This document shows, one piece after another, positions 2,955 to 44,756 of a stretch of DNA of 60,890 nt. Position 1 is the first letter of the stretch; each line of letters starts with the position of its first letter. The position numbers and the translations under genes are program-made. The stretch is from the IMG/VR virus record IMGVR_UViG_3300037424_000169, positions 1-60,890 of that record. One strand, written 5' to 3'. This stretch comes from a virus. Taxonomy: Duplodnaviria > Caudoviricetes. A model generated the notes under the pieces. That model was not told the origin of the DNA. It did not search any database and worked only from the letters and a program-made list of their open reading frames with translations.

Positions 2955-2996
2955 AAAGCCTCCGGTGATTAATTTCATCGGGGGCTTTTTCTTTTT
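2955..2996 (+). terminator. intrinsic terminator
   Basis: AAAGCCTCCGGTG...CATCGGGGGCTTT followed by a T-run. Confidence 0.75.
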
Positions 2997-3011: not shown

Positions 3012-3587
3012 GTGTGGGCAATGTTTACGCTTCCTGATAGTTTTGAGGTTCCTCAACCCGTCAAATCGGCTTGGAATATACCTGAGCCGGTAATAGAAAA
3101 TGCTGATGAAAAGAAGCGATTATTTGGGGTTGAATTAGCTAAAAATACCCCGTTTCAAGCGGCCTGCTCAATTTTTAAAGACGACACTAACACAGCCCTA
3201 TGGTGTAGTCACAATTGGGTTAATGATCCTATAGTAGTGGCGTCCAAGGATAAATATTTAGAAGCGGCTGACACTTCTCAAGCTTTGCTTGACAAGGATC
3301 AATTCGCCCGTATGCTGCTCAATATGGCGAATGAAAAAAACGCCAGTAACACTATTCATATATTAGATGGCAAGGACCGCCTAAAAGCTTTAGAGCTTTA
3401 TGCTAAGGTTACAGGACTTATTGATACTAAAGCTGATCCTTTATTAACACAAAATTTTGTTCATAACAGTATGACCATTAAACTAGTTGAGCCTCAAGCT
3501 AAAGAAAAACCAATTACAACAATAGATAATAATGAAGTTCAAAATCAAAATATTAATTCACCCTTAAAACTTAAACTAGTTGGATAA
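3012..3587 (+). CDS. putative terminase small subunit
   Basis: C-terminal 'KDRLKALELYAK' motif typical of TerS; first gene of the virion module; ATG at 3021 is an alternative start. Confidence 0.6.
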   Translation: MWAMFTLPDSFEVPQPVKSAWNIPEPVIENADEKKRLFGVELAKNTPFQAACSIFKDDTNTALWCSHNWVNDPIVVASKDKYLEAADTSQALLDKDQFARMLLNMANEKNASNTIHILDGKDRLKALELYAKVTGLIDTKADPLLTQNFVHNSMTIKLVEPQAKEKPITTIDNNEVQNQNINSPLKLKLVG

Positions 3588-3615
3588 ATCGGCCGATTTA
3601 TTTCAGGAGATTTAA

Positions 3616-4203
3616 ATGAACATTAAGCTTAAAATTTCACTTGCTGCTTTTTCTTTAGTTGCTTTTGCTGGTATTGCTATTGGCCAGAGTGGCCTTTGGC
3701 CTAATTTTCCTATTGTAGGTGGTAGCTCCTACAGTTGTGGTAGCGTTAACGGTGTTAGCAATTGTACTGTTCCTGCTGGCCCTACTGTATTAACTGGTAA
3801 CGAGACTATTCCAGCTAATACTAATCTTTCTCAGGGTCGTAGCCCTCAGAATGTGCTTATTAAACCTGCTAATTTAAATGCTAATCCTCTTACTTTTGTT
3901 ACCGTAACTACTCCCCCGGCTGGCATTAGCGCTTCTAATATAGAAGGCGGAGTTGTTTATACATCATCCACTACTATTACTTCTGCTAATGTTACACTTC
4001 CAGCTAGTGCAATTAATGGCCAGCAGTACCGTATTGCGTCTAATCGAACTATTACTACTTTAACTGTAGACGCTGCTACCGGCGATAGTATCGCAACTAA
4101 TAGCAATCCTACCTCTCTAACTGCTTCTACCACCTCACCTTCAAACTATAATTTTGTTTGTGATAAAACTAGCTTAGTTTGTGTTTGGAAGCGTTTACAG
4201 TAA
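3616..4203 (+). CDS. signal-peptide-bearing Ser/Thr-rich fiber/decoration-like protein
   Basis: N-terminal signal sequence, two Cys pairs, 'ANVTLPAS..NGQQYRI' fiber-like beta domain. Confidence 0.65.
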   Translation: MNIKLKISLAAFSLVAFAGIAIGQSGLWPNFPIVGGSSYSCGSVNGVSNCTVPAGPTVLTGNETIPANTNLSQGRSPQNVLIKPANLNANPLTFVTVTTPPAGISASNIEGGVVYTSSTTITSANVTLPASAINGQQYRIASNRTITTLTVDAATGDSIATNSNPTSLTASTTSPSNYNFVCDKTSLVCVWKRLQ

Positions 4204-4213
4204 GGAATAAAAT

Positions 4214-5329
4214 ATGGGTACGGTTTTAAATTGGGGAAACCCTTTACATAAACCGTACCCATTATTTTTATTAGGATTTGGAGTTATTACAGCTTACATA
4301 CCTGGAATTGTAGGAGCCTCTATATCTACAGGATGGTTATTTTTATTTATATACATTCCTTTTTTATTTTTATACTGTGATAAAATTCGATTTAGATTAG
4401 GATTTATTTTTATTTGTTATGTTATATTATCATTAGTTTGGACTGAAAATTTAAACATAGCTTGGTTTCATCTTTTACAATTGATTATATTAGCCTGTGT
4501 TTTTTGTGTAGGCCAAAATATAAAAGATATAAAACCTATATTTAAAGGTTTGGCATTAGGATTAGGAGTTTCAGCAACTATATCTATTTTTCAATACTTT
4601 GGTTTCTATGGACAAATTTATACAATCACTAAGTCGTTCGCCGGTTTTTTTATAAATCCTAATATATTTAGCGAAGTTTCTGCTGTTATGTTAATTAGCT
4701 TAGTTGTTTTAAAATTATGGTGGTGGATACCAGTTACTTTACCTGGGTTAATATTAGTTCAATCTAGAGCAGCTTATCTAGCGTTGGCTGTTGGTATTTT
4801 TATTTCAGTCTGGAAATATAATAGATATTTAGCATTTACATTATTTAATATAATAATAATTATAGGATTATATTTTTATTGGGATAAATTTAGTTTAGTA
4901 AGTTTTAAAGAACGGCTAGATATGTGGGCAGATACTATACAAGGATTTAATTTTTTTGGTAATGGGGTTGGTTCTTATGAAGTATTATTTCCTTACTACG
5001 CTACACATATAGATACTGAAATAGCTAGACCACGTTATGCCCACAATGACTTATTAAATATTATTTTTGAATTTGGTATAGCTTCAATTTTATTTTTAAT
5101 GGTTTTGTTTAATGCTTTTAAATCAAATAAATCAGAAGTCACCATTTTACTCACAGTTTGTATTATTTCGTTATTTACCTACCCTATGCATATACCAACT
5201 CAAGCTTTTATTGCTTTTTTGGTTGCGGGTTATCTTACTGCTAATATTACCTCTAACAGGGTTGTTTGGGATAATTGGGGATCAAATTTATTTACAAGGC
5301 TTAAAAGAAAGAAATTTTTTAAAGCTTGA
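4214..5329 (+). CDS. O-antigen ligase / O-oligosaccharyltransferase family membrane protein (Wzy_C-like)
   Basis: multi-TM; NPN, SRAA, 'ERLDMW', 'FFGNGVGSY' and 'AHNDLLNIIFEFG' motifs. Confidence 0.85.
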   Translation: MGTVLNWGNPLHKPYPLFLLGFGVITAYIPGIVGASISTGWLFLFIYIPFLFLYCDKIRFRLGFIFICYVILSLVWTENLNIAWFHLLQLIILACVFCVGQNIKDIKPIFKGLALGLGVSATISIFQYFGFYGQIYTITKSFAGFFINPNIFSEVSAVMLISLVVLKLWWWIPVTLPGLILVQSRAAYLALAVGIFISVWKYNRYLAFTLFNIIIIIGLYFYWDKFSLVSFKERLDMWADTIQGFNFFGNGVGSYEVLFPYYATHIDTEIARPRYAHNDLLNIIFEFGIASILFLMVLFNAFKSNKSEVTILLTVCIISLFTYPMHIPTQAFIAFLVAGYLTANITSNRVVWDNWGSNLFTRLKRKKFFKA

Positions 5330-5603
5330 GGTAGCTCGTTATTTTTTCCCATTTGAAAGAGAAATTTTAATTGGTCCTGCTCAATTTTACTTTAGAGAAA
5401 AGATTGCAAATGCTAATTCAGTATCAGTTTATAAAGATGCTTTAAAATATGATCCTTACTCTATTCAATTTTTAGGTGTAGCTATTCAATTAGACTACAT
5501 CTATGGAAATAAAAATGAAGCCTTAATAGGTAAACAAAAATTACAAAAAATAGGTCCAAATTCAAAAGTATTAAAACAGATTAACGCGAAAGGATTTAAA
5601 TAA
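5223..5603 (+). CDS. membrane-anchored TPR-like protein overlapping the ligase gene
   Basis: hydrophobic N-terminus followed by TPR-like 'YKDALKYDPYS'; start uncertain (TTG 5223 or frameshift). Confidence 0.55.
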   Translation: MRVILLLILPLTGLFGIIGDQIYLQGLKERNFLKLEVARYFFPFEREILIGPAQFYFREKIANANSVSVYKDALKYDPYSIQFLGVAIQLDYIYGNKNEALIGKQKLQKIGPNSKVLKQINAKGFK

Positions 5604-6013
5604 TGACCATTCCATCCGGCCCGGTTCCTTCTTTTCCTAACACCATAGGATTGCAAGACGGTAAATCTTTAAATAGGCTCGCTCAATTAATGGGGTCAGT
5701 CCAAAATGGGATTACGGCTCAAGCTGACGGAACTAAAGCTAACGCTACTCAGATTACAGGCGTTAAAGCTCATGTAGCTACGTCTGCTGGCGCTGCTGAT
5801 AGCGTTTTACTTCCTCCTGGTTACCCTGGCTTAGAAGTGACTATTTTTAATGGTGGCGCTAGTAGTATTCAAGTCTTTGGTAGTGGGAGCGACACAATTA
5901 ATGATATTGATACTGACACTGGCGTAACTCAAAATAATGGCATATCTGCTGTTTATACTTGTTACGATGTTGTAGCCGGTGTTGGTATTTGGGGCCGTGT
6001 TCTTTCAGCTTAA
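5603..6013 (+). CDS. virion decoration-like protein (no signal peptide)
   Basis: Gly/Ala/Thr-rich beta protein, 'DSVLLP..GLEVTIFN...IQVF...DTIN'. Confidence 0.6.
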   Translation: MTIPSGPVPSFPNTIGLQDGKSLNRLAQLMGSVQNGITAQADGTKANATQITGVKAHVATSAGAADSVLLPPGYPGLEVTIFNGGASSIQVFGSGSDTINDIDTDTGVTQNNGISAVYTCYDVVAGVGIWGRVLSA

Positions 6014-6023
6014 GAGGTTTAAA

Positions 6024-6728
6024 ATGCAACGTCTAATTTTAGGAATTATCTTAGCGTTGGGCGTTGCTTTTAATGCTTCCGCTCAAATATCCCCACAATG
6101 CTATACTACTAATGGAAGTAACTGTATTAAAGTTGGCACTCCTGAAACTAGTACAGGGGCATGGGGGGCTTTACCTGTTGTTGGTACAGTATCCATTAGT
6201 AGTAGTTCGGTTGATGCAGTTGATGTGACAGGCATAGTTACAGTAAGTAATTTTACAGCATCGGCTTTACAAACTGCTAGTACTCCTACAATAAGTACTT
6301 CTAATTATACAGCCGGTAATTGTATTGGCGGATTTAATGCTGTAACTGTTACTAATAGCAATGGGCAGACTGGATTTTTAACTAATTTTACTGTTACTAA
6401 TATTAGCGGTGCTACTCCTACCCTCACTGTGTTTATTTTTGATAGTCAGCCTACAACATCAACTTGTACTGACAAAAGCACATTTTCTATAAGTGCTACT
6501 GATCTTGATAAATTAATAGCTACTCCTACTGCAATTACGTTAGCTGCTCCAACTAGTGTAACGTCGCCTTCCACCGCGTCTTTAGATTTTACACCGCCGC
6601 GACCGTTTGTTGCTGGTGGTTCTATTTCAAGCGGAGTTAAAACTATTTACTATGGAATAGTAACAACCGCAATTACACCTACGACAACTAACGGGTATCA
6701 TATTAGAATTGGCGCGGCATTGAATTAA
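6024..6728 (+). CDS. signal-peptide-bearing Thr/Ser-rich structural-like protein
   Basis: GAGG RBS; MQRLILGIILALGVAFNASA-Q; four Cys. Confidence 0.7.
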   Translation: MQRLILGIILALGVAFNASAQISPQCYTTNGSNCIKVGTPETSTGAWGALPVVGTVSISSSSVDAVDVTGIVTVSNFTASALQTASTPTISTSNYTAGNCIGGFNAVTVTNSNGQTGFLTNFTVTNISGATPTLTVFIFDSQPTTSTCTDKSTFSISATDLDKLIATPTAITLAAPTSVTSPSTASLDFTPPRPFVAGGSISSGVKTIYYGIVTTAITPTTTNGYHIRIGAALN

Positions 6729-8005
6729 TGAAAAAATTAAAACTATATCTATTTTCATTATTATTACTGTTGAGTAGTGGTTTTAATGCAAACGCATTTA
6801 CTGCTACTCAACAGACTGTTTTGTTTGGTAGTAGTTGCCCTACAATTGGAGGTACTTGTCCATCAATAAATGCTAATTTTACTACTGATAAATATTGGGT
6901 TGAGGGTGTTGGATTTGTACCTTTAACAAGTATTGTTTCGACTAGTAGGGCATCATCTGCTTTATCTCAAGATACTAATGGTACTTGGTATAGTTTTTCA
7001 GCTAATACATTACGTGTTACTAATAAGGGCGCGCTGATCGAGGAAGCGCGGACGAACAAGTGTACGAATTACAATGCTAATCCTCCGGCGTTGGTGGCGA
7101 TGGGCACTGCGGCGGCATTTAATGCTGCCGTGACGAATATTACGGCAGGCGCAGGAACTGGCACTCCCCTATTTGGGGTTGTTGACGATAGCGCGGCTAT
7201 CGCCGCTAGTGGTTTAGCGAATGTCTCCAATGGTAGAACTTACGTTATTGATAATACGCTTGGAACATCTGACTCAAGCTTAACTTTTTCAGGTGTCGCC
7301 GGAAATACTAATACTCACACAATTTCAGCTTACGGGCGAGTTATTGGTACTGCCGGAGCCAACAACAGAATTGAAGTTCAAGATACAACTTCAATAAGAG
7401 CGTCCTTTACTGGTACTACAACTTACACTCGCGTTAGTGCAAGCGGTGTTCCTACAGCCATAAGTTTGCTTCGTGTCCGCGCAATCGCCGGCGCTACTGT
7501 ATACGTCACTCTCAACCAACTCGAAGAAGGCGCATTCGTCACGTCGCCCATTGTGGTTGCTGGCGCTTCCGCCACCCGCGCCGCAGACGTTCCGCAGTTG
7601 ATCGGGCCTGCCTTGACGGCGGCGCTGGCTGCCAAGGCGGCGTTCTTTCAGACGAATGGGATGGCAAATTCAACGGCCCCTAGACCTATTGATAGCTCCA
7701 CCGGGCGCATTCAATTTGACAGCACAACTGTTGTAGATGCTGTAATCGGAGCCAACACAGCGCCTGCAACTTTAGGCGCGGGAACGAGCGCAGGCACAGT
7801 AAAATTTGCTATGGCATTTGATGCTATCAACTTTAGCATGGTGGCAAACGGGGGAACGAAAGTAACTAATGCAAATGCTTTTAGTTTTACGGGCGCGGTA
7901 TACTTAGGAACAAATTTGGCCGCTACTCGTATTATTAACGGCTACATGCAGCGCTTCGCGTTCAGCCCGGTGAAGGGCGTCTTTGACGGAGCTACTAGAC
8001 CATGA
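6728..8005 (+). CDS. signal-peptide-bearing head-spike/fiber-like protein
   Basis: signal ending ANA; 'GALIEEARTN' and 'QLEEGAFVTSPI...ATRAAD' motifs seen in phage/GTA fiber proteins. Confidence 0.7.
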   Translation: MKKLKLYLFSLLLLLSSGFNANAFTATQQTVLFGSSCPTIGGTCPSINANFTTDKYWVEGVGFVPLTSIVSTSRASSALSQDTNGTWYSFSANTLRVTNKGALIEEARTNKCTNYNANPPALVAMGTAAAFNAAVTNITAGAGTGTPLFGVVDDSAAIAASGLANVSNGRTYVIDNTLGTSDSSLTFSGVAGNTNTHTISAYGRVIGTAGANNRIEVQDTTSIRASFTGTTTYTRVSASGVPTAISLLRVRAIAGATVYVTLNQLEEGAFVTSPIVVAGASATRAADVPQLIGPALTAALAAKAAFFQTNGMANSTAPRPIDSSTGRIQFDSTTVVDAVIGANTAPATLGAGTSAGTVKFAMAFDAINFSMVANGGTKVTNANAFSFTGAVYLGTNLAATRIINGYMQRFAFSPVKGVFDGATRP

Positions 8006-8475
8006 AACTCGCCTCCGCACTAACTGCGTCCTTAGTGCTTTTTAGTGCTGTTGCTCATGCTGCACGTGCTGATCAATTTGATTGTATTTTTAAATGGGAT
8101 ACAGTGATTGATGCTAGAGCGGATGTTAAAATGCTTGCTCACTCTATACTAGATGATCAAGGTGTTAGGCAGTTTGTTCAAGACCATGTAATTTCTAATA
8201 TTAAAGTTTGGCGAGCCAGCCAAGATACAGTTGATATTTCTGGTGATACTTTACATAATTACTTACCTGGTTTTTTTGCTTTAATTTCAGTAGATCATAG
8301 GATACCTGTTTTAGAAAATGATCCAGCTTTACAAGTTTGTGTTAATAGAGATAAAATGAACGCTGGTCAAACTCCGTATCTTTTCCTTTCTTCATATTCT
8401 GCTGCGATTTTAAAAGATATTCGTTTTGCTCCTATCTATATGGGAGCTAATTTTCCATTTGGAAGCTTACAATGA
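8002..8475 (+). CDS. exported hypothetical protein
   Basis: MKLASALTASLVLFSAVAHA signal; ATGA overlap. Confidence 0.65.
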   Translation: MKLASALTASLVLFSAVAHAARADQFDCIFKWDTVIDARADVKMLAHSILDDQGVRQFVQDHVISNIKVWRASQDTVDISGDTLHNYLPGFFALISVDHRIPVLENDPALQVCVNRDKMNAGQTPYLFLSSYSAAILKDIRFAPIYMGANFPFGSLQ

Positions 8476-8503: not shown

Positions 8504-9973
8504 ATGGGTAATGCTTATAATTTTAATAATGAAACTTACATGAATGCTATTAATCAACAACAGTTTGATGAAGGAATAGAGCTTTCTATCCCTAAGAAAC
8601 TTTCGTTTCTACTAGATACCCCTGCGCGTTTTAAAATAGCTTATGGTGGTCGTGGTGGTGCAAAAACTGAAACTATAGCCAGAATACTTATAGTTTTTAC
8701 TACTCAACGGCGCTTGCGCGTTGCTTGTTTTCGTGAATTTCAAAACTCTATGGACGAAAGCGTTTACGCTACTATAGTAAATGCTATTTATGATATTTGG
8801 AAAGACGGGTCTTGGGTATTTGAATGGGATATACAAGATAAAATTATTAGAAATAAACGTACTGGATCGGAATTTATATTTGCAGGATTGCGTTATAAAA
8901 TTGAAGCTATTAAATCAATGGCTCGCATTGATATAGCTTGGGTAGAGGAAGCTCGCGTTTGTTCTAAGGTCACACTTGATAAACTTTTTCCTACTATTCG
9001 TGGTGTTTATAAAGAAGGTGAAAGTGGCGGCCCATTTGGTAAAGGTCCTGAGATTTGGATTAGTTTTAATCCAGAACTAGACAGTGATGAAATTTATAAG
9101 CGCGCTGTCAAACAGCCTGACAAATATTTTCCTGAATTTGTAATGAATGAACAAACAGGAGAAATGGAGCGATATGCTATTATTGTTAAATTAAATTATT
9201 ATGATAATCCTTTCTTGCCTGAAGACTTACGACAGCAAATGGCTGTCGCCAAACAAGCTTCTAAAGATGATGAAGATGACGAATACCTTCATGTATGGGA
9301 AGGTCACACTAAATTAGTTTTAGCTGGTGCAGTTTATACTAAAGAAATTAAAAAGATTGTCCAAGAAAGTAGGCGAGGTAGAGTACCTTACAATCCAAAT
9401 AAACCAGTCTTTACATATTGGGATTTAGGGCATAGCGATAAAACAGCTATTTGGTTTGTTCAACATGCAGGCGTTGAATTTAATTTAATTCGTTATTATG
9501 AAAATCGTTTAGAGAAAATGCCTCATTATATTAAGTATCTCCAAGATACTGAATATAATTTTAGTACCCATGTTTTACCGCACGATGGCGATGCTGAAAC
9601 ACTTTCTAATGTCACTCCAAAAAAACAAGTACAAGATGCTTTCCCAAATTGTAAAGTTAGAATTGTTAATAGACCATCTAAAAAAGTTGTCGGTATAAAT
9701 GCTTGCCGTACCATACTCGATCTTTGTAATTTCGATGAAGAAAACACAAGCGATGGTTGGGCTTGTTTGTGTAACTATGCATTTAAAGTCAACGAAATTA
9801 ACGGTGTGTTTTCTAAAGAGCCTGATCATGATACACCTTGGAGCCACGGCGCAGACGCTTTACAAACTTTAGCGTTATCTTTAAAACCAGAAAAAGAAAT
9901 TAAAATAAAAACGGTCGGCAGTAACGTAAGAACTTTACATAATTTTAGAAGTGGTTCGGGGTGGATGGCATGA
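8504..9973 (+). CDS. terL: terminase large subunit (PBSX-like)
   Basis: Walker A GGRGGAKT, Walker B IAWVEEA, SFNP, nuclease WDLG and HGADA motifs. Confidence 0.95.
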   Translation: MGNAYNFNNETYMNAINQQQFDEGIELSIPKKLSFLLDTPARFKIAYGGRGGAKTETIARILIVFTTQRRLRVACFREFQNSMDESVYATIVNAIYDIWKDGSWVFEWDIQDKIIRNKRTGSEFIFAGLRYKIEAIKSMARIDIAWVEEARVCSKVTLDKLFPTIRGVYKEGESGGPFGKGPEIWISFNPELDSDEIYKRAVKQPDKYFPEFVMNEQTGEMERYAIIVKLNYYDNPFLPEDLRQQMAVAKQASKDDEDDEYLHVWEGHTKLVLAGAVYTKEIKKIVQESRRGRVPYNPNKPVFTYWDLGHSDKTAIWFVQHAGVEFNLIRYYENRLEKMPHYIKYLQDTEYNFSTHVLPHDGDAETLSNVTPKKQVQDAFPNCKVRIVNRPSKKVVGINACRTILDLCNFDEENTSDGWACLCNYAFKVNEINGVFSKEPDHDTPWSHGADALQTLALSLKPEKEIKIKTVGSNVRTLHNFRSGSGWMA

Positions 9974-12258
9974 GTTGGTCCTCAACATGGAATACTAAAT
10001 CTGCTAAACCAGCCCCCCCACAGACTGAGGATGAGTTAGAATTAATTGAGCAAGTTAAAGAAGATTTTAAAAATGGTGTATCGTGGGAAGCTCAAGCGCG
10101 TGTAAATTTCGAGTATGATTATAAATTTGCTAATGGTGATACCCACAATAAATTTCAATGGGATAATGATTTAATTTTAGCGCGTGAGTTAGATGATAAA
10201 CCTTGCTTAACTATTAATAAGGTTCAACAACACAATTTAATGGTTATTAATGACGCTAAACAAAATAAGCCAGGGGTTCGTATTCGCCCGGTTGGTGATG
10301 AAGCTTCATTTGAGGGGTCTCAAATATTTCAAGAATTAGTTTATCATATTGAATACATATCTAATGCTGAAAATGTTTATGATAGCGCCACGTCTTTCCA
10401 AGTTCAAGCTGGTTGGGCGTATTGGCGTATAGATACTGATTACGTTAGTGATAAAACTTTCGATCAAGAAATTTATATACGTCATATTAAAGACCCTCGC
10501 TCAGTTTATTTAGACCCTGACATTAATGAAATTGATGGCAGTGACGCCCGATGGGGTTTAATTTTTGAGGATATGGATAAAGAGCTTTATAAGAAAAAGC
10601 ATCCTAAATTTGCTGATGTTATGGGTAGCTCCACTTTAGGAAGCAAAGGGGATGGTTGGCTAACCGATGATAAGGTTAGAGTTGCTTTATATTATTATAA
10701 AGAAGAAAAAGAAGATAAATTAATCCATTGGATAGGGCAAGATGGCACTCAAGTTATTACTAAGAAATCAGAATTAGACGATCAACAAAAGATATTTTAT
10801 CAGGCTATTAAAAAAGAGCCTCAAGCTAAAGAGCTTTTACAATTTAAAGAACGCTCTATAGTTTCTAATGATGTTTATTGGTGCAAAATAGCTGGTGATA
10901 GAATTATCGAAGGTCCTACTAGATGGTTGGGAAGTACAATTCCTATTGTCAGACTTGTGGGCACAGAGACAGTTATTGATGGTGTTTTAGATAGAAAAGG
11001 ACATACTAGAGCTTTAATAAATGCTCAACAAATCTATAATTTTATGAGTTCTAGTAATGTTGAGTTTATTTCTACTCAATCTAAAACACCTTGGGTTGCG
11101 CCTTCTGCTGCTATTGAGGGATTTGAAGAATATTATAAAACTGCTAATCGTATTAATCATTCTTATCTTCCTTATAATGCTTATGATGATGAAGCTAATC
11201 CACTTCCTGCTCCTACGCGCAATAGTGCGATTAATAGCGGTACTGGTTATGTCACTCAAATGCAAGTTGCTCAAAATGAATTGATGATGGCGAGCGGCCA
11301 ATATCAAGCACAAATGGGAGAAAATGAAAATGCTAAGTCTGGTGTAGCTATCAATGCTCGTCAGCGTCAAGGCGATAGAGCTACTTATCATTTTATTGAT
11401 AACTTAGCTATTGCTATTCGTTGCACTGGTAAAATTTTAATTGATCTTATCCCAAAAGTTTACGATACACCTAGAGTTAAAAAGATTTTAGCTCAAGACG
11501 GTTCGCGTATGAATGTTAAAATTGATACCGATGCTAAACAAGAATTACAAAATACTACCGATCCTAACAATCCACCTATGGACAATGGGCAAAAAGTTAC
11601 CGAATATGTGTTTAATCCTGAATTTGGCCAATATGATATTCAAGCCGATACCGGACCAAGTTTTGCTACTAAACGTATGGAAACAGCAGCAGCATTACTT
11701 GAATTAGCTAAGGGTGATGAAAACTTTATGAAAATTGGTGGTGATATCCTTATGAAGAATATGGATTTCGCCGGTGCTGATATTCTTGCTTTACGTTATG
11801 GAAATATAATACCACCCCAAGTTAAGGGTGAAGGTCTGCCTCCTGAAGTTGAAGATCAAATGAATAAAGCCGCTGATATGATACAAATGCTTCAAGGTAA
11901 GATTGGTGAGCTTACACAGCAAGTTAAAGATAAAGATAAAGAGCTTACTATTAAGGCTCAAAATCTTGACCTTAATTTTAAGAAAGAAAGTGCTGCGCAA
12001 GCTAGAGAAGATTATCGTGCTGAGACTGAGAGAACGGTTGCTCTGTTTAATACTTCCAAGGATGGGGAAGGTATTGATCCTCAGTTAAAGGTAGTTTTAA
12101 AACAATTAATTTCTGGTATGCTTGCTAATGGCGAATTAAATTTTAAAGATGACGAAGAAGATGAGCCTCCGATTGAGGGAGCGAAAAAGGGTAATGACGG
12201 ACTTTGGTATGTAGAAAATCCTGAAGGTGGATATGCTAGAGTGGAAGAAAATGCCTAA
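9970..12258 (+). CDS. portal protein (P22-like)
   Basis: 'PCLTINK' and 'SGVAINARQRQG' motifs, C-terminal coiled coil; ATGA overlap with terL. Confidence 0.9.
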   Translation: MSWSSTWNTKSAKPAPPQTEDELELIEQVKEDFKNGVSWEAQARVNFEYDYKFANGDTHNKFQWDNDLILARELDDKPCLTINKVQQHNLMVINDAKQNKPGVRIRPVGDEASFEGSQIFQELVYHIEYISNAENVYDSATSFQVQAGWAYWRIDTDYVSDKTFDQEIYIRHIKDPRSVYLDPDINEIDGSDARWGLIFEDMDKELYKKKHPKFADVMGSSTLGSKGDGWLTDDKVRVALYYYKEEKEDKLIHWIGQDGTQVITKKSELDDQQKIFYQAIKKEPQAKELLQFKERSIVSNDVYWCKIAGDRIIEGPTRWLGSTIPIVRLVGTETVIDGVLDRKGHTRALINAQQIYNFMSSSNVEFISTQSKTPWVAPSAAIEGFEEYYKTANRINHSYLPYNAYDDEANPLPAPTRNSAINSGTGYVTQMQVAQNELMMASGQYQAQMGENENAKSGVAINARQRQGDRATYHFIDNLAIAIRCTGKILIDLIPKVYDTPRVKKILAQDGSRMNVKIDTDAKQELQNTTDPNNPPMDNGQKVTEYVFNPEFGQYDIQADTGPSFATKRMETAAALLELAKGDENFMKIGGDILMKNMDFAGADILALRYGNIIPPQVKGEGLPPEVEDQMNKAADMIQMLQGKIGELTQQVKDKDKELTIKAQNLDLNFKKESAAQAREDYRAETERTVALFNTSKDGEGIDPQLKVVLKQLISGMLANGELNFKDDEEDEPPIEGAKKGNDGLWYVENPEGGYARVEENA

Positions 12259-15200
12259 CGAAGCACCAGAAGGATATGAATTAAGATATACTGAAGGCGA
12301 TCAATATCCGTATTATCAACGTATCCATACCGAGGAAACAACTTTCGACGAAGACCCTTTTATTCGTGCTGCTGAGAGATTGAGACGTGGTGTTAAAGGA
12401 CGCCAGCAATTGCCAGCACAAGACGCGGCTACCCCTGAAGGCCCTCCTAATTATATTATGGAGCCTGATTTATTAGAAACTCAGCAGGGTATGAGTTTGC
12501 CTACAGGTATAGCTTTTAATGATGCTGGTATTCCTTTTAATTTAAAAACTGGAAAAGAAGTACCAATAATCCCACGTCCTAAAGTTTTACCTATTGCGAA
12601 AACACCAGACGGATATACATTTGCGATGCCTAAAATGTTAGATGTAGCTGGTAATGTTATGGGCGGTGTTGCTGGTGCTCCTGTTAAGGGTGCGGAAGTT
12701 TTGTTGGGCAGTGGTGCGGTTAGGAAAGTACCAGAAATTATTAAAGCTGCGGAAGGTCCATTTTATTCAGCTTTAGAACGTGCTGTTGATAATTCTAAAG
12801 TTGGTAAAGCTGACGCTCAACAGTGGCTTGGTTATTTAAAAAATCAACCGGGTGTTAAGAGTGAGGAATTGGCTTATGTTTTAGGTGATATTAAAGGTAG
12901 TCTTACAAAAGCTGAAGTGCAGGATATAATTAAAAATAATAAGGTGGAGTTGAAGGAAATTGGGAAGGGTGATATTAAAGCTTGGGATGAACTTGGTCCC
13001 AAAGAAATAAAAGAACAAGAAAAACAATTTAAAGAATTTTATGGTTATAAAGGGTCATTAGATGAAGTTGAAGAATTTTATAGTGGTGGGGAATTAAGTT
13101 CTCCTACCAAATACCACGGCTATCAACTCCCCGGTGGTCCTTTATCAAGAGATACTGAAATTTTAACGCGCGACGGTTGGAAGCGTATTGATGACGTTTC
13201 TATCGGTGAAGAAATTATTACGCGCAAAGATGAAAGCGGCGAACTTGAATGGCAATCTATTCAAGCCGTGCCTACAGTTTACGCTGAAAAGCTTTATCAT
13301 TTTTATAACCAGTCTATTGATATGCAGGTTACAGCAAATCATAAAATGGTTGTTAGAAAGCGTAGGCGTTCAAGTCGCGGTATATTTAGAATAACTGCTG
13401 AGCAGCTTTGGAAAACTTCGGAGTGCGTAATTCCTTTAACTGGCAATTGGACAGGTAAAGGTAGTAAAACTCTATTTGGATATGATGCTTGCGATGTAGC
13501 GGAATTTATCGGTTGGTATCTTGCGGAAGGTTCTTATAAACATAAGAACGGAATAAAAAATACAATTCAAATCGCGCAATCTCGCGCGCATAATCCAGAC
13601 AATTGCGATAGGCTGGAAGCTCTTTTTGATAGGCTTGGGGTTGTGTGGAAATATTACGGTAACGGATATGGGATTGGTAGTAAGTCTATAAATAAATCTC
13701 TTTTAGATTTACTACACAGTCAGCCTACCTCAGAAGGTAAGTTTATTCCGTCTTTATTTTTTAATGAAAACAAGCATGTTGTAAACTCATTATTAGCGGG
13801 TTTAATTTTAGGTGACGGTCATCATAGCGAAGATATTTATGACGATTACGGAAACCTAAGACAAGCTAGAAAGATATTTTTTAGTAAATCCAAATCACTT
13901 GCTGATGGAGTGCAAATTTTAGCATTGCTGAGCGGTTATCGTGCAAGCGTTCGTAAGCGCCCAACTGGTATCTATGTTGTGGGTATAAATTCTAAAGAAT
14001 GGAATAGCGTCGATGACGCTAAATATGCAATTGTCGATTACCACGATTTTGCGTTCTGCGTTACAGTGGAAAATCATTGTATTTATGTACGTCGTAATGG
14101 CGTAGCTGCGTTCACTGGAAACTCTGACTATAAAGAAATGTTATTGACGTTGCCTAACAGTTGGGAAAAGTTTAGAGAACTTCAAAAAACAAACGATGCT
14201 AGAATTGCTACCTTACGTCAAGAAATGCACGGTACTAGCGGATCAAATGAAATTCGTGCTGAGATCAGTAAATTGCAAAATGAAAATCAAAATTTACAAA
14301 AACAAATTAGAGAAGCTCCTATTTATACTTCTTCCCATTGGGATGAACCAAATGTTTTAGCTCATGTTCGTATGAATGATAGAACAGTTGATGGCAAGAA
14401 AACTCTCCACATAGAAGAAATCCAATCTGATTGGCACCAAGCGGGACGTAAGCAAGGTTATAAACTTTCTGAGAAACAGAAAGCTGACTTGGATAATATT
14501 GAAAATAAATTAACATCTAAACTCACTGAAGCTGAGATTGGTAATCCTGATATTGATAATGTTTTAAAAATTGCTGTTGAGAAGAAAGTTATTTCCAGCG
14601 ATGATGCTAAAAATTATAAAGAATATGTAAAGGGTGAAAACTCAAACATACCAGATGCTCCATTCAAAAAGAATTGGGATGAATTAGCTTTAAAGCGAAT
14701 GCTTCACAAAGCTGCTGATGAAGGTTATGAAGGGATTAGTTGGACGCCGGGAGAGGCGCAAGCGGCTAGATATGATTTGAGTAAACAGGTTGATAAGATT
14801 GAATTGGTAAAACATGGGGATAGGGGTACATACGTCAGAGGTTATAAAAATGGCGGTATGCCTATCAATGAATTATTAAAAGATGAAAGTAAGCTTGCTG
14901 GCATGATCGGCAAAGAAGCTGCTGAAAAATTATTAAAATCTAAAGTTGAAAAAAGAACATCCGGTACAGGGGAGGAAATAGAAACTCGATTTTTAGAAGG
15001 TGATAATTTAAAAATCGGTGGCGAAGGCATGAAGTCTTTTTACGATAAGATACTAGTTGATCGTGCAAACAATTTAGCAAAGAAGTATGGGAGTAAGGTA
15101 GAGCAGCGGAATTTAAATAATGAACTTATTGTAGCTTCCAAAAAATTAGCTGAGTTTGAAGCTAAATTTAAATCTAAACCTATTCCGTTATCTATGAAAG

Positions 15201-15424
15201 CTGAACATGAAAATTTAAGAAACGCTGTTGCCAAAGCTAAAACTGGTGAAACTTCTCAACCCATCCACTACTTACCAATACCACCAGAACTTCGCGCCAA
15301 AGCTAAAGAGGGGTTTCCTATGTTTAGTTTTACCCCGACGACTGTACCAGTTGACTATGATCCTTTTAAGTCTGAAGATAAAAAATACCGCTTAGTGCCA
15401 GTTCAAGGAAATCCGTTTAAATGA
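12251..15424 (+). CDS. large polyvalent/virion-associated protein containing an intein
   Basis: 'FYSALE..GVKSEEL', 'SSHWDEPNVLAHVR', 'IEEIQSDWHQ' and 'PDAPFK' motifs of large podophage proteins; interrupted by an intein. Confidence 0.75.
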   Translation: MPNEAPEGYELRYTEGDQYPYYQRIHTEETTFDEDPFIRAAERLRRGVKGRQQLPAQDAATPEGPPNYIMEPDLLETQQGMSLPTGIAFNDAGIPFNLKTGKEVPIIPRPKVLPIAKTPDGYTFAMPKMLDVAGNVMGGVAGAPVKGAEVLLGSGAVRKVPEIIKAAEGPFYSALERAVDNSKVGKADAQQWLGYLKNQPGVKSEELAYVLGDIKGSLTKAEVQDIIKNNKVELKEIGKGDIKAWDELGPKEIKEQEKQFKEFYGYKGSLDEVEEFYSGGELSSPTKYHGYQLPGGPLSRDTEILTRDGWKRIDDVSIGEEIITRKDESGELEWQSIQAVPTVYAEKLYHFYNQSIDMQVTANHKMVVRKRRRSSRGIFRITAEQLWKTSECVIPLTGNWTGKGSKTLFGYDACDVAEFIGWYLAEGSYKHKNGIKNTIQIAQSRAHNPDNCDRLEALFDRLGVVWKYYGNGYGIGSKSINKSLLDLLHSQPTSEGKFIPSLFFNENKHVVNSLLAGLILGDGHHSEDIYDDYGNLRQARKIFFSKSKSLADGVQILALLSGYRASVRKRPTGIYVVGINSKEWNSVDDAKYAIVDYHDFAFCVTVENHCIYVRRNGVAAFTGNSDYKEMLLTLPNSWEKFRELQKTNDARIATLRQEMHGTSGSNEIRAEISKLQNENQNLQKQIREAPIYTSSHWDEPNVLAHVRMNDRTVDGKKTLHIEEIQSDWHQAGRKQGYKLSEKQKADLDNIENKLTSKLTEAEIGNPDIDNVLKIAVEKKVISSDDAKNYKEYVKGENSNIPDAPFKKNWDELALKRMLHKAADEGYEGISWTPGEAQAARYDLSKQVDKIELVKHGDRGTYVRGYKNGGMPINELLKDESKLAGMIGKEAAEKLLKSKVEKRTSGTGEEIETRFLEGDNLKIGGEGMKSFYDKILVDRANNLAKKYGSKVEQRNLNNELIVASKKLAEFEAKFKSKPIPLSMKAEHENLRNAVAKAKTGETSQPIHYLPIPPELRAKAKEGFPMFSFTPTTVPVDYDPFKSEDKKYRLVPVQGNPFK
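13139..14122 (+). mobile_element. intein with LAGLIDADG homing endonuclease (328 aa, Pro1, Ser+1)
   Basis: block A PLSRDTEILTRDGW, block B VTANH, FIGWYLAEGS and LAGLILGDG, block F AFCVTV, block G FTGN|S. Confidence 0.9.
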
Positions 15425-18692: not shown

Positions 18693-19358
18693 ATGACTAA
18701 ATGTGTAGTTTCTGATTGTGATAACGATAGTAAAGGTGGCTTTGGTTATTGTCGAAAACATTATCAACAATTTTATAAAGATCATCCTGAGTATAAACCG
18801 CGCGGTAAATATGGGCGTAACCATCCTCTTTATATAATTTGGTGGCAAAGAAAAAGTGATAAATTACTTTGTGAGGAATGGTTAAATTTTGATAAATTTG
18901 TAGATGATGTTTCTCCAAAACCAGATGGAAATTTTTTACTTGTTCGATTGCGTAATGACCTTTTTGGGCCTACAAACTTTAAATGGCAAGAGCATTTAAA
19001 ACGCAAAGAGGATGAAAGTAAAAAAGACTGGCATGCTAGGAAAAGGGCGGCTAGAATTGCGGCAAATCCTAGTATGGAAAGTGATAGAAATTTAAAAAGA
19101 ATTTTTGGAATTACTAGAGAGAAATATAACGAAAACCTACAATTACAAAATTTTGTTTGTGCAATTTGTGAGCAGCCAGAAACTACAGTTTCTCCTAATA
19201 CAGGCACTATAAAACAATTAGCAGTGGATCATTGCCATAAAACTAATAAGGTTAGAGAATTGCTTTGCTATCGCTGTAATACTACCATTGGACGAATAAA
19301 CGAAAATATAGAGTTATTAGATAAAATGAAAGCCTACTTGATTAAACACTTAGACTAA
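18693..19358 (+). CDS. endonuclease VII-like HNH homing endonuclease
   Basis: CAIC...LAVDHCH..VRELLCYRCN. Confidence 0.9.
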   Translation: MTKCVVSDCDNDSKGGFGYCRKHYQQFYKDHPEYKPRGKYGRNHPLYIIWWQRKSDKLLCEEWLNFDKFVDDVSPKPDGNFLLVRLRNDLFGPTNFKWQEHLKRKEDESKKDWHARKRAARIAANPSMESDRNLKRIFGITREKYNENLQLQNFVCAICEQPETTVSPNTGTIKQLAVDHCHKTNKVRELLCYRCNTTIGRINENIELLDKMKAYLIKHLD

Positions 19359-27623: not shown

Positions 27624-27805
27624 TTTTAAATACCAAAATGGAGTTTCTAATTTCCACCAAAAATAAGAAGCTACAATTAGAATTGTAGGCATAAATATAA
27701 ATTTATGATATTTAAAAGTTATATACCAAATTGGTATTAAAATTAAAAGTATTGGATTACTTAAAGATATTAGGACTGTAATTGTTATGAAAAAAAACAT
27801 TGGCA
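27573..27805 (-). CDS. small antisense membrane protein
   Basis: hydrophobic ORF filling the AT-rich gap between ejection gene and tail fiber. Confidence 0.4.
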
Positions 27806-30495
27806 TTTTATTTACATTCCTAACTATCTTTGGTTTGGGAATTTTAATTTTCAAACCTGCAATAGCTCAAGATGCTAGTCTTTTACCAAATGCGGTTCAA
27901 CAATTTTTTGATAGTTCTGGAAAACCTCTTGCTTCTGGCAAAGTATATTTTTATGAAGTTGGCACTTCTACATTTAAAGATACCTACACTTCTTCAGCAG
28001 CTACTACACCTTATCAAAATCCAATTACATTAAATGCAGGTGGTAAACCCCCCGGTAGTTCTGGTATTTATGGTATTGGATTATATCGTCAGCTTGTTAG
28101 GGATAAAAATAATAATATAATTTGGGATGCTGTTACGGCTCCCGGTGGTGGCGGTGGTAGTACTCCTACTGATGTTGGGGATGGTAATTTAGTTGGTACT
28201 GTACTTCCTTGGTCTGGTTTAGTTGCTCCTAATCAATATACTTTTGCATATGGACAAGAATTAGCCCGTTCTACTTATCCTGAATTTTTTACTGCTGTAA
28301 CTCAACAGGCTAATGTTATTTGTAGTTCCGCTAGTAATATATTGACTGGTATTTCAGATACGTCTCAAATCCCAATTGGTGCAGATATTGAACTTTCATT
28401 GTGTGTTATAGCTGGAACTACTGTTATTTCTAAAACATCTTCAACTGTTACGCTTTCAAATCCATCTTCTGTTTCTATTAATACAGTTGCTACATTTTTT
28501 CCTTATGGAAATGGAAACAGGTCTACAACTTTTAATGTTCCTGATTTACGTGGCTATGTTTTAGCTGGTCGTGATAATATGGGAGGTTCTGCATCAAGTC
28601 GTTTAACTTCAACCTATTTTGGTTCAGATGCCGATGCTTTAGGAGCGGTTGGGGGCTCACAAAGTCATACTCAAACTATTTCAGAAATGGCCGCTCACGA
28701 TCATACCTTAACTGATCCGGGTCATAGTCATAAGATAGGTGGTAATGGAGCAGCACCTTCCGGCTCAAGTATTGCAACTATAACAAATTATAATATTAGT
28801 GGTGTTCAATATGATAGCCAAATTGTAGCCACTGGAATAACTATGGCTATAACTGGTGCTAGTGTTCCTTTTAGTATTGTACAACCTACTATAACTTTAA
28901 ATTATATTATTAAAATTACTCCTGATACTTCAACTTCTATTGCTACTGGTGTTTATTCTATCGGTGGTATGAGTGGTGTTATCAGTTGCGGTACTGGCAT
29001 ATTATGTACTGGAAATATTATAAATTTTAATGGTAATGTTTTGGCTGGTGGTTCAACAAGAAGTATTCAATTTAGAAATTCAGATGGTTCTTTTGGAGGT
29101 TCTGATAATTTAGTTTTTATTAGTCCTGATACTTTAACATTAGGTGTCTCTGGTTCAACCATGAATTTTGATATTTATGGTCTGACTAGTGGACGTGTTA
29201 GACAAAATGTACAAGCTGTTGCTGGTACACCAACTATTGTTTGGGGGAATGCAAGTGGTACTCCTGCTGTAATAGCAGCATTTCCATTAGAAATAGATAC
29301 TGTAACTGGTACTATTAATTGTGATACTTGTGCTACTGGTTCTTTAAATGGGCAAGCTTTAACTAAAATTGATGATACTAATATTACTTTAACATTAGGT
29401 GGTTCCTCAACTACTGCTTTATTAAGTCCGGCTTCTTTAACTTTAGGTTGGACCGGAACTCTTGCCGCTGGTCGTCTCAATAGTAATGTTGTGCAAGCTA
29501 TTACTAATGATACTAATATTACAGGTTCTATATCCGCTCAAAATCTAACTTTGGGTTGGACGGGACAATTAGCAGTTTCTCGCGGGGGTACTGGTTTATC
29601 CTCTGGCACTTCTGGCGGTATTCCTTATTTTAACTCAACCTCTACTATGGCTTCTAGTGGTGTATTAGGAGCTAACCAAATTGTGTTAGGTGGTGGTGCT
29701 AGTGCTAGCCCAACATCTTTAACGTGTGCAGCTTCTACCACTGTCGTTCATGGTGGTACCCCTCCTACTTGTTCTCAAATTGTAGCAGCAGATATTACTA
29801 CAAATACAATTACTAATTCTAATTTATCTCAAATTGGTGCAGCTACTATTAAAGGTAATCCAACGGCGTCAACAGCTAATACTCAAGATTTTACATTTGG
29901 TAGTTTAACCCAAACTATTAGCCCCGGCGCAACAGATTGGATACCAATTTATGATAATGCTACTGGTACAATTAAAAAAGTAAATGCTGGTATCATCGCT
30001 TCTGCTTCGGTTGCTGGTGTAAGTTCTATTGCTGGTAATACAGGTGCATTTACATTAAGCACAGGTATTACTAATTCAGCTAATAATATTATAGCTGATA
30101 TATCTTCTGAAGCTGATTTTGAAGCTGGTACGGCTAATAAATTGTTAGATGCTAATGTAGTATTTACTGCTGAAATAACTACAACTTATGGAACCACTAC
30201 AACTTTTGATTTTGATACTTTTATAAATAGTCAAGTTATTTTAACTGGTAATATTACTACAATGAATTGCAGTAATATGAAACAAGGTCAAGCTGGTACT
30301 ATTGCTTACATTCAAGATGGAGTAGGAAGTCGTACCGCTGCTTTCAATACCGGAACTTGCTCAACAGTTTTAAAATTTGCTAATGCTTCATTCCCAACAC
30401 TAACTACTTCAGCAAGCGCGATTGATATTTTATCTTATTCTTGCCGTAGTTCTACATATTGTGCAGCGGCTCTTTCTAAAGGTTACAATCCGTAA
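27787..30495 (+). CDS. tail fiber with N-terminal signal peptide and collar domain
   Basis: signal ...KPAIA-Q; virion-anchor 'QFFDSSGKPLASGKVYFY'; collar 'GNG..TTFNVPDLRG'; many Cys pairs. Confidence 0.85.
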   Translation: MKKNIGILFTFLTIFGLGILIFKPAIAQDASLLPNAVQQFFDSSGKPLASGKVYFYEVGTSTFKDTYTSSAATTPYQNPITLNAGGKPPGSSGIYGIGLYRQLVRDKNNNIIWDAVTAPGGGGGSTPTDVGDGNLVGTVLPWSGLVAPNQYTFAYGQELARSTYPEFFTAVTQQANVICSSASNILTGISDTSQIPIGADIELSLCVIAGTTVISKTSSTVTLSNPSSVSINTVATFFPYGNGNRSTTFNVPDLRGYVLAGRDNMGGSASSRLTSTYFGSDADALGAVGGSQSHTQTISEMAAHDHTLTDPGHSHKIGGNGAAPSGSSIATITNYNISGVQYDSQIVATGITMAITGASVPFSIVQPTITLNYIIKITPDTSTSIATGVYSIGGMSGVISCGTGILCTGNIINFNGNVLAGGSTRSIQFRNSDGSFGGSDNLVFISPDTLTLGVSGSTMNFDIYGLTSGRVRQNVQAVAGTPTIVWGNASGTPAVIAAFPLEIDTVTGTINCDTCATGSLNGQALTKIDDTNITLTLGGSSTTALLSPASLTLGWTGTLAAGRLNSNVVQAITNDTNITGSISAQNLTLGWTGQLAVSRGGTGLSSGTSGGIPYFNSTSTMASSGVLGANQIVLGGGASASPTSLTCAASTTVVHGGTPPTCSQIVAADITTNTITNSNLSQIGAATIKGNPTASTANTQDFTFGSLTQTISPGATDWIPIYDNATGTIKKVNAGIIASASVAGVSSIAGNTGAFTLSTGITNSANNIIADISSEADFEAGTANKLLDANVVFTAEITTTYGTTTTFDFDTFINSQVILTGNITTMNCSNMKQGQAGTIAYIQDGVGSRTAAFNTGTCSTVLKFANASFPTLTTSASAIDILSYSCRSSTYCAAALSKGYNP

Positions 30496-31229
30496 TGATA
30501 AAATTACTAGTAGTTCTACTTTTAATATTTAATGGAATAGCGCAAGCTAATCCACCCGGTACATTTCAACCTTTATTATTAAACACTAAAAACCCATTAA
30601 CAATAACTAATACAGATAGTGCTAGCCAAGCTAGTGCTTCTAATACTACAACATTTACTAATAAATTAATTGGAGTAGCTAACTCTGGTCGTCTAGTTTC
30701 AGCTTGTGTTGCATGGAGGTCTAATGGAACTGAAACTTTAACTTCTGCTACTATTGGGGGAATATCAGCAACAATAACTTTACCAAATCAGCAACAAACA
30801 CCAACTTATTTTAATGTAGCTATAATTAGAGCATTAGTACCAACTGGTTTAACAGCAAATTTTACATTAAATTATAGCGGAAATTTATCAGGTAGTGGTG
30901 CATATACAGCTATAGCTGTATATAGTATATTACCAACTAATTCGACTATTTCATCTGATTACGCTACTGGTACAGGAACTACATCAATCAGCCTAAATAC
31001 TGATGTTAATTTAGGGGGTGTAATAATGGCGTGTGGATTTAGTCAAGCGAGTTCCGCTCGCGGGTTTACAGGATTAACAAAAAATGGGGAAATAAATACG
31101 CAAGGATCGGATTGGATGCAATATGGTTCTGATATGTATTCTGTTGCTCAAGCACCAGTATCAATTACCGCTACCTCAACAGGAGGTAACCAATTTACTG
31201 CTATTTCCGCCGCATTTAATCCATTATAG
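30495..31229 (+). CDS. signal-peptide-bearing Ser/Thr-rich fiber-tip-like protein
   Basis: MIKLLVVLLLIFNGIAQA-N; TAATG coupling to tail fiber. Confidence 0.7.
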   Translation: MIKLLVVLLLIFNGIAQANPPGTFQPLLLNTKNPLTITNTDSASQASASNTTTFTNKLIGVANSGRLVSACVAWRSNGTETLTSATIGGISATITLPNQQQTPTYFNVAIIRALVPTGLTANFTLNYSGNLSGSGAYTAIAVYSILPTNSTISSDYATGTGTTSISLNTDVNLGGVIMACGFSQASSARGFTGLTKNGEINTQGSDWMQYGSDMYSVAQAPVSITATSTGGNQFTAISAAFNPL

Positions 31230-32897: not shown

Positions 32898-32899
32898 TT

Positions 32900-33259: not shown

Positions 33260-33269
33260 AGGAATTAAA

Positions 33270-33596: not shown

Positions 33597-33603
33597 TTAT
33601 TTT

Positions 33604-33640
33604 AAATAGCTAGGGGTTAAGATTACCCCTAGCTATTTTT
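33604..33640 (+). terminator. intrinsic terminator, possibly bidirectional
   Basis: AAATAGCTAGGGG...CCCCTAGCTATTTTT. Confidence 0.75.
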
Positions 33641-33648
33641 ATGGGAAG

Positions 33649-44679: not shown

Positions 44680-44756
44680 TGGTCTGTGTGAAAGGATTTG
44701 AACCTTTGACCTTTCCGCTCCAAACGGAAAGCTCTACCAGACTGAGCTACACACAG
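44680..44756 (-). tRNA. tRNA-Pro(UGG)
   Basis: reverse complement CTGTGTGTAGCTCAGTCTGGTAGAGC...TTTGGAG...GGTTCAAATCC...CACACAGACCA. Confidence 0.95.

Follow-up and report, generated by a model that had tools for sequence, protein, structure and literature searches.

The late region of a tailed phage (Duplodnaviria; Caudoviricetes), read here over the whole of IMG/VR record IMGVR_UViG_3300037424_000169 (the window, a complete virus record of 60,890 bp; CheckV 100%), carries between its terminase genes a cassette (3616 to 8475) in which genes for apparently exported, fibre-like proteins surround one for a membrane enzyme of the Wzy_C family. Taken as a whole, the evidence is best explained, at a probability we would place just short of even, by a lineage-wide 'periplasmic fibre' system of which this cassette is the terminase-proximal part. 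Its components carry separate weights: export of the fibre-like proteins, as predicted from their N-termini, is highly probable; their incorporation into virions stands at even chances; and a protein acceptor for the enzyme is a tentative proposal that we rate somewhat below even. Genes are referred to below by their start coordinates, with strand given as + where features are located.

The original prediction, made from the letters of this DNA, had placed four ORFs (open reading frames) with Sec-type signal peptides between a putative terS and a putative terL, and all four are there: 3616, 6024, 6728 and 8002, flanked by genes that can now be assigned to the small (terS, 3012..3587, +; phrog_5334, 6e-13) and large (terL, 8504..9973, +; Terminase_3, 2.9e-31) terminase subunits. 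Leaders were called by a heuristic of our own, based on a Lys/Arg-containing n-region, a hydrophobic h-region and a small-x-small (AxA-type) cleavage site, and all three elements occur in each of the four proteins, with cleavage predicted after MNIKLKISLAAFSLVAFAGIAIG and before Q in 3616, after MQRLILGIILALGVAFNASA and before Q in 6024, after MKKLKLYLFSLLLLLSSGFNANA and before F in 6728, and after MKLASALTASLVLFSAVAHA and before A in 8002 (leader ending AVAHA). By the same heuristic, Sec-type leaders are also predicted for 27787 and 30495, in the tail module. The close Cys pairs quoted earlier are indeed found in 3616 (C41/C50), 6024 (C26/C34) and 6728 (C37/C44), and the Ser/Thr richness of these three is equally evident, at 25%, 28.5-30% and 22% Ser+Thr, respectively, versus a mean of 11.9% (sd 4.7) for the genome, computed on 91 greedy gene calls. 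Leader-like N-termini were scored in 3/6 cassette genes vs 4/85 others (Fisher p = 0.005), 6024 having been missed in this count only because the script took an upstream GTG start; beyond the cassette, the genome-wide test flagged 27787-30495, 30495-31229, 33954-34490 and 59095-59352. Outside the cassette and tail module, leader-like N-termini appear in three more small ORFs, the last two of these and 221-451.

The product of 3616 (3616..4203, +) combines a Sec-type leader, the Cys41-Cys50 loop, a conserved module (TVPAGP..TGNETIPANTNL) and a C-terminal domain, ending in WKRLQ, of the fibre-tip type, which also caps the leaderless tail fibres P0322, P0334, P0346 and P0354. Its family comprises 165 representatives (exhaustive HMMER search, E<=1e-3), most of them about 190-210 residues long. 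The first ~100 residues, hereafter the N-module, consist of the leader, the motif P-I/V-V-G-x-x-S-Y/F-C, a loop rich in Gly, Ser, Thr and Gln with 6-40 residues between the cysteines, and then C-x-x-T-V-P-A-G-P..T-G-x-E..P-x-D-T-N-L. The same N-module heads proteins of 371-1102 residues with fibre repeats and beta-helix-like bodies, all bearing leaders, and the longest N-module protein, in relative L041, reaches ~1280 residues. A degenerate DNA pattern for the N-module retrieved 43 viral loci, 42 of them genuine by profile search, and a predicted leader together with the Cys loop is present in 40 of 41 distinct N-module ORFs, the remaining one being cut by the end of its locus, a degree of conservation that argues against chance. 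In every locus that shows terL, the N-module gene lies directly upstream of it, and the terS-terL slot of relatives often carries additional leader-bearing, Cys-loop proteins. Twin-arginine (Tat-type) leaders are found on cassette proteins of two relatives, L028 (oriented 3421-3777) and L004 (4848-6491), the latter protein being a 547-residue beta-helix of the pectate-lyase fold (PF12708, 2.6e-16). Conservation of leaders and disulfide loops across the clade is the reason why these proteins look exported, as the original prediction had proposed.

Export does not appear to be confined to the cassette. Flanked by genes for ejection proteins and for lysis, at the place of the tailspike gene in P22-like phages, lies a gene for a 902-residue tail-module fibre (27787..30495, +) with 25% Ser+Thr and a predicted Sec-type leader, ending FKPAIA, after which the mature protein would begin with QDASLLPNAVQQF. 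Its assignment draws on PF07484 Collar (2.6e-9; 37.3 bits vs a cut-off of 24), PHROG tail protein and tail fibre matches, and resemblance by tblastn to tail collar proteins of cultured phages. Of 20 related records, 18 encode a homologue of its N-terminal region, and a Sec-type leader, divergent in sequence, precedes every one of these 18 tail-fibre homologues (18/18), with a conserved mature N-terminus, xLLP(N/P)(A/G)x(Q/T)(Q/C)F, following it. The breadth of this pattern makes fibre export a property of the lineage and not of the cassette alone. The next gene (30495..31229, +) encodes a 244-residue Ser/Thr-rich protein (25.4% Ser+Thr) with a predicted Sec-type leader, MIKLLVVLLLIFNGIAQA before NPP, and no family match in Pfam or PHROG. 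Within the fibre gene there is also a His-rich stretch (28680-28760; ..AAHDHTLTDPGHSHKIGG..), reminiscent of the HxH metal sites known from fibre proteins of T4.

The remaining exported proteins of the cassette are variable. That encoded by 6024 (6024..6728, +), Ser/Thr-rich and with an N-terminal Cys26-Cys34 loop, has only viral hypothetical clusters as nearest neighbours and weak structural rows in Atlas searches, while 6728 (6728..8005, +) contains at residues 103-286 a lectin-like domain of the gene transfer agent (GTA) head-spike-fibre type, matching NCBIfam NF048003 (GTA_spike_fiber) over model positions 1-182 of 182 by a narrow margin (36.7 bits vs a cut-off of 36), alongside PHROG matches to phrog_5939 and phrog_1419 (tail protein). 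Relative L036 encodes leader-bearing homologues of both, of 575 and 407 residues, respectively. The 157-residue product of 8002 (8002..8475, +), with its Sec-type leader, belongs with five other clusters, none of them named, and received no family assignment in Pfam, PHROG, NCBIfam or Atlas searches. The fibre and head-spike motifs noted earlier thus have a basis in the 6728 matches and in the 3616 C-terminal domain shared with leaderless tail fibres.

A leaderless counterpart of 3616 is encoded in the same cassette. Gene 5603 (5603..6013, +) specifies a small protein of fibre/adaptor fold whose whole length aligns by hhalign, with family profiles on both sides, to 3616 residues 51-195 (E 1.4e-5, 80% probability); it is both a paralogue of 3616's body and one of the clade's core genes. 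Its family has 136 clusters, of which the 120 listed are 108-140 residues long and nearly all 134-140, and is better conserved than that of Wzy_C. Foldseek searches with its AlphaFold2 (AF2) model (pLDDT 87.8) returned the KP1 baseplate, the Pa223 capsid spike, T4 gp9/gp10, CBA120 TSP4-N and a tailspike N-terminus at E-values of only 4e-4 to 5e-2, which therefore speak for fold class, not identity. Related ORFs are present in 26 of 27 related records, and in L020 and L045 such genes lie between the adaptor and Hc3 hub genes. Of the earlier proposal that 5603 is the virion-side part, the fold, the near-universal presence in the clade and the neck-module location in L020 and L045 stand, and these make a place in the virion plausible. 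The sole negative record of the 27 is the near-complete G027 (L042, L126), which has an N-module close to that of 3616 and neither Wzy_C nor a 5603-like gene; in G007 and G028 the 5603-like ORF is in each case interrupted by one in-frame TGA.

The enzyme at the heart of the cassette, 4214 (4214..5329, +), is a polytopic membrane protein of 371 residues whose Wzy_C membership, claimed beforehand, holds by sequence family (Pfam PF04932, residues 176-295; 38.6 bits vs a cut-off of 31.7) and by fold. Against 48,161 chains, VIA-align placed the WaaL chain 7tpj_B on top (Z 15.4, rmsd 4.4, 294 residues aligned, spanning model residues 7-347), well separated from the SEDS proteins FtsW (Z 8.6) and RodA (Z 7.5) that came next, while Foldseek on the same model gave nothing better than E 1.4, and at the sequence level neither the Wzy_C profile nor the single sequence matched any PDB chain, even at E<=10. 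The 4214 family comprises 83 clusters beyond its own, 35-84% identical and almost all on contigs of up to ~60 kb, with R185, R234, D240, E256 and H277-N278-D279 invariant; the next matches drop to about 28-30% identity and include one with the name 'O-antigen ligase family'. The predicted periplasmic loop 240-290, with the invariant His, was modelled at pLDDT <50. No NCBIfam model was found for 4214, 3616, 5112, 5603 or 6024. As for TfpO/PilO-type enzymes, the gene sits beside that of an exported protein in 16/16 records (5 of these found through Wzy_C), yet the candidate substrate 3616 has a Sec-type n/h/c leader and not a prepilin one. For D3-type seroconversion Wzy proteins the comparison fails on the lack of an integrase among the ORFs scanned, the terS-terL location and the lack of a tblastn match.

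In the +1 frame, 5112 (5112..5603, +) shares 218 nt with the 3' end of 4214. This ORF goes beyond the original prediction, as do the paralogy of 3616 and 5603 and the leaders on 27787-30495 and 30495-31229. The ORF would encode a membrane-anchored TPR-like protein and may in fact start at an internal TTG. Its soluble domain has no Pfam match, and its ten best family-bearing language-model neighbours all belong to the TPR clan (0.91-0.94), which has the value of a lead. Both frames of the overlap, the C-terminus of Wzy_C and the N-terminal anchor of the TPR-like protein, are conserved in L002-L005, whereas in L006 the equivalent of 5112 is a separate, non-overlapping ORF with a membrane anchor of its own. 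A programmed +1 frameshift that would fuse Wzy_C to the TPR-like domain was considered and rejected, given the separate ORFs of L006 and the lack of any protein >400 residues among 86 homologues in the searched range of 204-650 residues. The TPR-like gene accompanies Wzy_C in 12 of the 13 loci with the downstream region in view (L010 is the exception). Prediction of a complex of Wzy_C, the TPR-like protein and mature 3616, run without controls, gave no answer (a score of zero, 0.00) and speaks neither for nor against binding.

Put together, these observations suggest, for a clade of short-tailed phages that is uncultured and has P22-type portals, a sequence of events in which fibre, spike and lectin-type proteins, the tail-module fibre included, would be made as Sec (occasionally Tat) preproteins, with the terS-terL slot always contributing an exported N-module protein (here 3616) and often further, variable ones (here 6024, 6728 and 8002). 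Their Cys loops would be oxidised following export, an oxidising compartment being the only setting in which the conservation of such loops is understandable. Roughly one in four of the related records examined, that of this genome included, encodes beside the N-module gene the Wzy_C enzyme of WaaL fold and the TPR-like protein, anchored in the membrane and periplasmic, and these two would most likely transfer a glycan linked to undecaprenyl pyrophosphate (Und-PP) onto the N-module protein or its exported companions; by analogy with known gene pairs, the juxtaposition itself is best explained if Wzy_C is a dedicated glycan transferase for the N-module protein. The matured proteins would then most likely be added to particles that are complete in all other respects, after the holin has opened the inner membrane, and would dock by way of their conserved mature N-termini, while the leaderless 5603 would be their cytoplasmic, particle-side relative. 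Conserved residues immediately after the cleavage site, in the N-module and tail-fibre families alike, are what suggests the new N-terminus as the docking element, in the manner of the RcGTA head-spike fibre with its ten docking residues at the N-terminus (PMC10218006). In P22, tailspikes are the last components to attach, and heads can be supplied with them in vitro; attachment following holin action is therefore plausible in mechanistic terms. The scheme in its strictest form is one of two-compartment assembly, with heads and tail hubs made in the cytoplasm and all receptor-binding fibres exported by Sec or Tat, oxidised in the periplasm, glycosylated in some members, from host Und-PP-linked glycans, by the WaaL-fold enzyme with its TPR adaptor, and joined after holin action; in that form we regard it as doubtful.

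Several findings weigh against the periplasmic fibre reading, above all against glycosylation as a regular part of it. Export, cleavage, glycosylation and virion presence are all read from the genes, and we know of no tailed phage that assembles with fibres kept apart from cytoplasmic heads until lysis. Pfam Wzy_C is found in 11 of the 40 records reached through the N-module and absent from 29; among near-complete records (>=90%) the corresponding figures are 5 and 10 of 15. The enzyme is therefore not essential to the exported proteins, and since L036 lacks Wzy_C although its 6024 and 6728 homologues keep their leaders, any glycosylation by a phage enzyme must be optional. As to the co-occurrence of ligase and signal-bearing fibres, Wzy_C adjoins the N-module gene in all 16 records having it (L003 is cut), a count that is biased, since Wzy_C itself was the route to no more than 5 of these loci; most N-module records do without it. 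A family profile for Wzy_C detected it in 2 of the 31 records lacking an adjacent Wzy_C in the fetched stretch, and in record coordinates both of these genes, included in the 16, abut the N-module gene; a terL tree of 11 rows, with two long branches and unsure placements, implies at least two gains or losses of Wzy_C. By eye, no residue was found to set N-modules next to Wzy_C apart from the others, in a list of N-module ORFs that lacked the one of L019. General O-oligosaccharyltransferases of the PglL type are defined by PglL_A and/or Wzy_C_2 beside Wzy_C. Neither domain occurs in 4214 (at Pfam E<=0.1 only Wzy_C was reported), nor did any NCBIfam equivalog or WaaL model match it at E<=1; its acceptor could therefore be lipid A-core or another glycan. 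Finally, the Tat-leader beta-helix of L004 fits an envelope-acting enzyme at least as well as a virion part.

This last point leads to remodelling or masking of the host envelope, the alternative that the original prediction had itself named, in which exported copies of receptor-binding or depolymerase proteins would act on the surface glycans of the infected cell instead of forming parts of the particle. Their periplasmic targets would be nascent O-antigen or capsule, to be bound or cut, and Und-PP-linked glycans would be re-routed or altered by the WaaL-fold enzyme, with the effect that superinfection is blocked and progeny are kept from sticking to debris. Phage Wzy-family genes are known from seroconverting temperate phages, among them D3 and VarioGold (PMC9658991); the L004 protein resembles the Tat-exported WceF (PMC7949094); the 6728 domain serves as a capsule-binding lectin in RcGTA (PMC10218006); and a WaaL fold is equally compatible with a lipid A-core acceptor. 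Yet the genes sit in the late operon of a phage whose replication genes make up a complete lytic-type module and whose scanned ORFs include no integrase, tblastn gave no similarity to named phages, those of the D3 type included, and a constant N-terminus with a variable C-terminus, at lengths of up to ~1280 residues, is typical for particle-borne fibres. Masking would also leave unexplained the leader on a canonical tail-module fibre in 18/18 genomes, and we consider this alternative, though the foremost of the rivals, unlikely.

Should the exported proteins instead be free lectins or enzymes, released at lysis to loosen the capsule or biofilm of neighbouring cells or to act as decoys without ever attaching to particles, the lectin-like and depolymerase-like domains of the variable accessory set would fit, as would the lack of a recognisable docking domain in 8002 and 6024. 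Lysis by itself, however, would free cytoplasmic proteins and make export unnecessary, and N-module conservation, the conserved mature N-termini and the tail-fibre leader would go unexplained, so that free release seems to us improbable. Display on the infected cell, with the N-module anchoring fibres in the envelope, for example to hold neighbouring cells close, finds a parallel in the mosaic adhesive trimer (MAT) proteins of Bdellovibrio, which have the same layout of signal peptide, ~130-residue N-domain and variable tips (PMC10769870). Yet the cassette shows no sign of a device for translocation across the outer membrane, late expression would leave little time before lysis, and the tail-fibre leader and the leaderless paralogue 5603 point to particles; we hold surface display to be very improbable. 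The slightest chance of all goes to the possibility that the hydrophobic N-termini are mis-called starts or uncleaved membrane tethers and not export signals. It draws on the home-made heuristic behind all leader calls and on the long h-region of 27787 (~18 residues), and is countered by an n/h/c architecture that recurs in divergent sequences in 40/41 N-module and 18/18 tail-fibre proteins, by conserved Cys pairs directly after the site and by the twin-arginine leaders of some relatives.

The genomic setting of the proposed periplasmic fibre cassette is that of a podovirus-type structural module, as judged from its gene content, in the order terS, terL, P22-type portal (Pfam 1.1e-140), scaffold, major capsid protein, adaptor, Hc3 hub and ejection proteins, followed 3' by the 902-residue tail protein, an amidase-SH3 endolysin, and then holin-like and lipoprotein ORFs. 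The genes of the terS-terL stretch, tightly packed or overlapping, follow a strong terminator-like hairpin (2955..2988, +; 14-bp stem with 7 GC pairs and a T-run). They form one late operon, whose upstream end the hairpin marks; the terS-terL interval has no internal terminator comparable to it. Replication genes form a lytic-type set (DNA polymerase with processivity factor, helicase, primase, single-stranded DNA-binding protein (SSB), Sak4 and a Cas4-type exonuclease), and no integrase was seen among the ORFs scanned in the window. The closest cultured phages share only ~30-42% identity in the portal, and cultured relatives exist only for this protein (<=42% identity) and the collar region of 27787; in a collection of named phages (50,697 records), no match was found for the cassette DNA, Wzy_C (by tblastn), 6728, 3616 or the long N-module protein P0278. 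Among bacterial genomes, the N-module pattern matched 77 times, giving 3 convincing ORFs (E<1e-20) and 3 marginal ones (~1e-4); the convincing three lie on phage-like contigs binned with metagenome-assembled genomes (MAGs) of Beijerinckiaceae, Pseudolabrys and Terriglobales, and these three binned contigs, with the GTA-type domain, are weak hints at Alphaproteobacteria as hosts.

Other features of the genome may be recorded here. The lysis block (32034-33897) encodes a leaderless endolysin with amidase_2 and SH3 domains, a 119-residue transmembrane (TM) protein, a 108-residue lipoprotein (lipobox LAGC) and an 82-residue TM protein, and is consistent with a diderm host. Four tRNA genes are present (1901-1985, 2850-2924, 44680-44756 and 46891-46965; Leu-TAA, Thr-TGT, Pro-TGG and Met-CAT), that for Thr-TGT directly before the late operon, whose proteins are very Thr-rich. 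The 1065-residue protein encoded after the portal gene (12227-15424) seems to contain an intein-like insertion, a block with a Cys start and a His-Asn end recognised by eye, with PHROG matches spanning only parts of the protein, and the terL ORFs of L004 (837 residues) and L019 (774 residues) may also contain inteins. Four genes of the homing-endonuclease type (endonuclease VII/HNH, GIY-YIG; 18693-19358, 23700-24329, 34471-35016 and 38557-39018) are dispersed over the structural and replication modules, and in L006 an HNH-AP2 gene is inserted between the N-module gene and Wzy_C.

On the current view, tailed phages fold and assemble their structural proteins in the cytoplasm. If the periplasmic fibre system is real, that cytoplasm-only view would be overturned for at least one lineage, the interval between holin and spanin action would gain a role in morphogenesis, and the cassette would provide the first candidate for glycosylation of phage proteins in the periplasm with host lipid-linked glycans, which would bear on host range, on resistance of virions to proteases and antibodies, and on glyco-engineering. 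Even under envelope remodelling, receptor-binding modules made by a phage for the periplasm would constitute a new kind of late envelope manipulation. There are practical sides as well, in that leaders on fibres are not anticipated by annotation pipelines or by predictors of receptor-binding proteins, and leader-bearing fibres would have to be targeted to the periplasm when made as recombinant proteins. In the literature searched, which took in few subscription journals and no supplements, neither Sec export of tail fibres nor glycosylation of phage proteins in the periplasm was found described. The apparent export of fibres and the enzyme gene beside one of them point to a route for finishing virus particles not described before.

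Among known systems, the closest in gene arrangement are pilins paired with dedicated O-oligosaccharyltransferases (pilA-tfpO/pilO, comP-pglS, TfpM), in which the enzyme gene lies beside that of its substrate. The adjacency of Wzy_C to an exported-protein gene and the disulfide loops of 3616 follow this pattern; the Sec-type leader of 3616, the shortness of the enzyme (371 residues), its separate TPR-like partner and the phage late-operon setting depart from it, and the activity of 4214 is read from sequence and fold. With WaaL (7tpj), 4214 shares its fold, its Pfam family and conserved Arg and His in the Wzy_C region, and differs in being phage-encoded, in its linkage to exported-protein and TPR-like genes, and in lacking any PDB sequence or NCBIfam WaaL match. 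A phage-borne membrane protein of the Wzy_C family is also found in the iap-wzy-beta-oac module of D3 and in VarioGold, whose VG_p25 is neighboured by small signal-peptide or TM proteins (PMC9658991). Those modules are moron-like, temperate and expressed in lysogeny, whereas the present one lies between terS and terL in a phage with lytic-type replication genes and has fibre-like partners. For individual exported proteins there are further parallels. Pantoea WceF is a Tat-exported glycanase of the tailspike fold that trims exopolysaccharide (PMC7949094) and belongs to a bacterial polysaccharide biosynthesis cluster, while the Tat-leader beta-helix of L004 is encoded by a phage, a relative of the one in the window. 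The lectin-like head-spike fibre of RcGTA (rcc01080) binds capsule and is attached to the particle through its first ~10 residues (PMC10218006); it is leaderless and docks by residues 2-10, where 6728 instead has a Sec-type leader and a Cys loop. In Bdellovibrio MAT proteins a signal peptide and a conserved ~130-residue N-domain precede a variable body and tip resembling phage fibres and tailspikes (PMC10769870), and between these bacterial fibres and the viral N-module proteins the likeness is one of layout.

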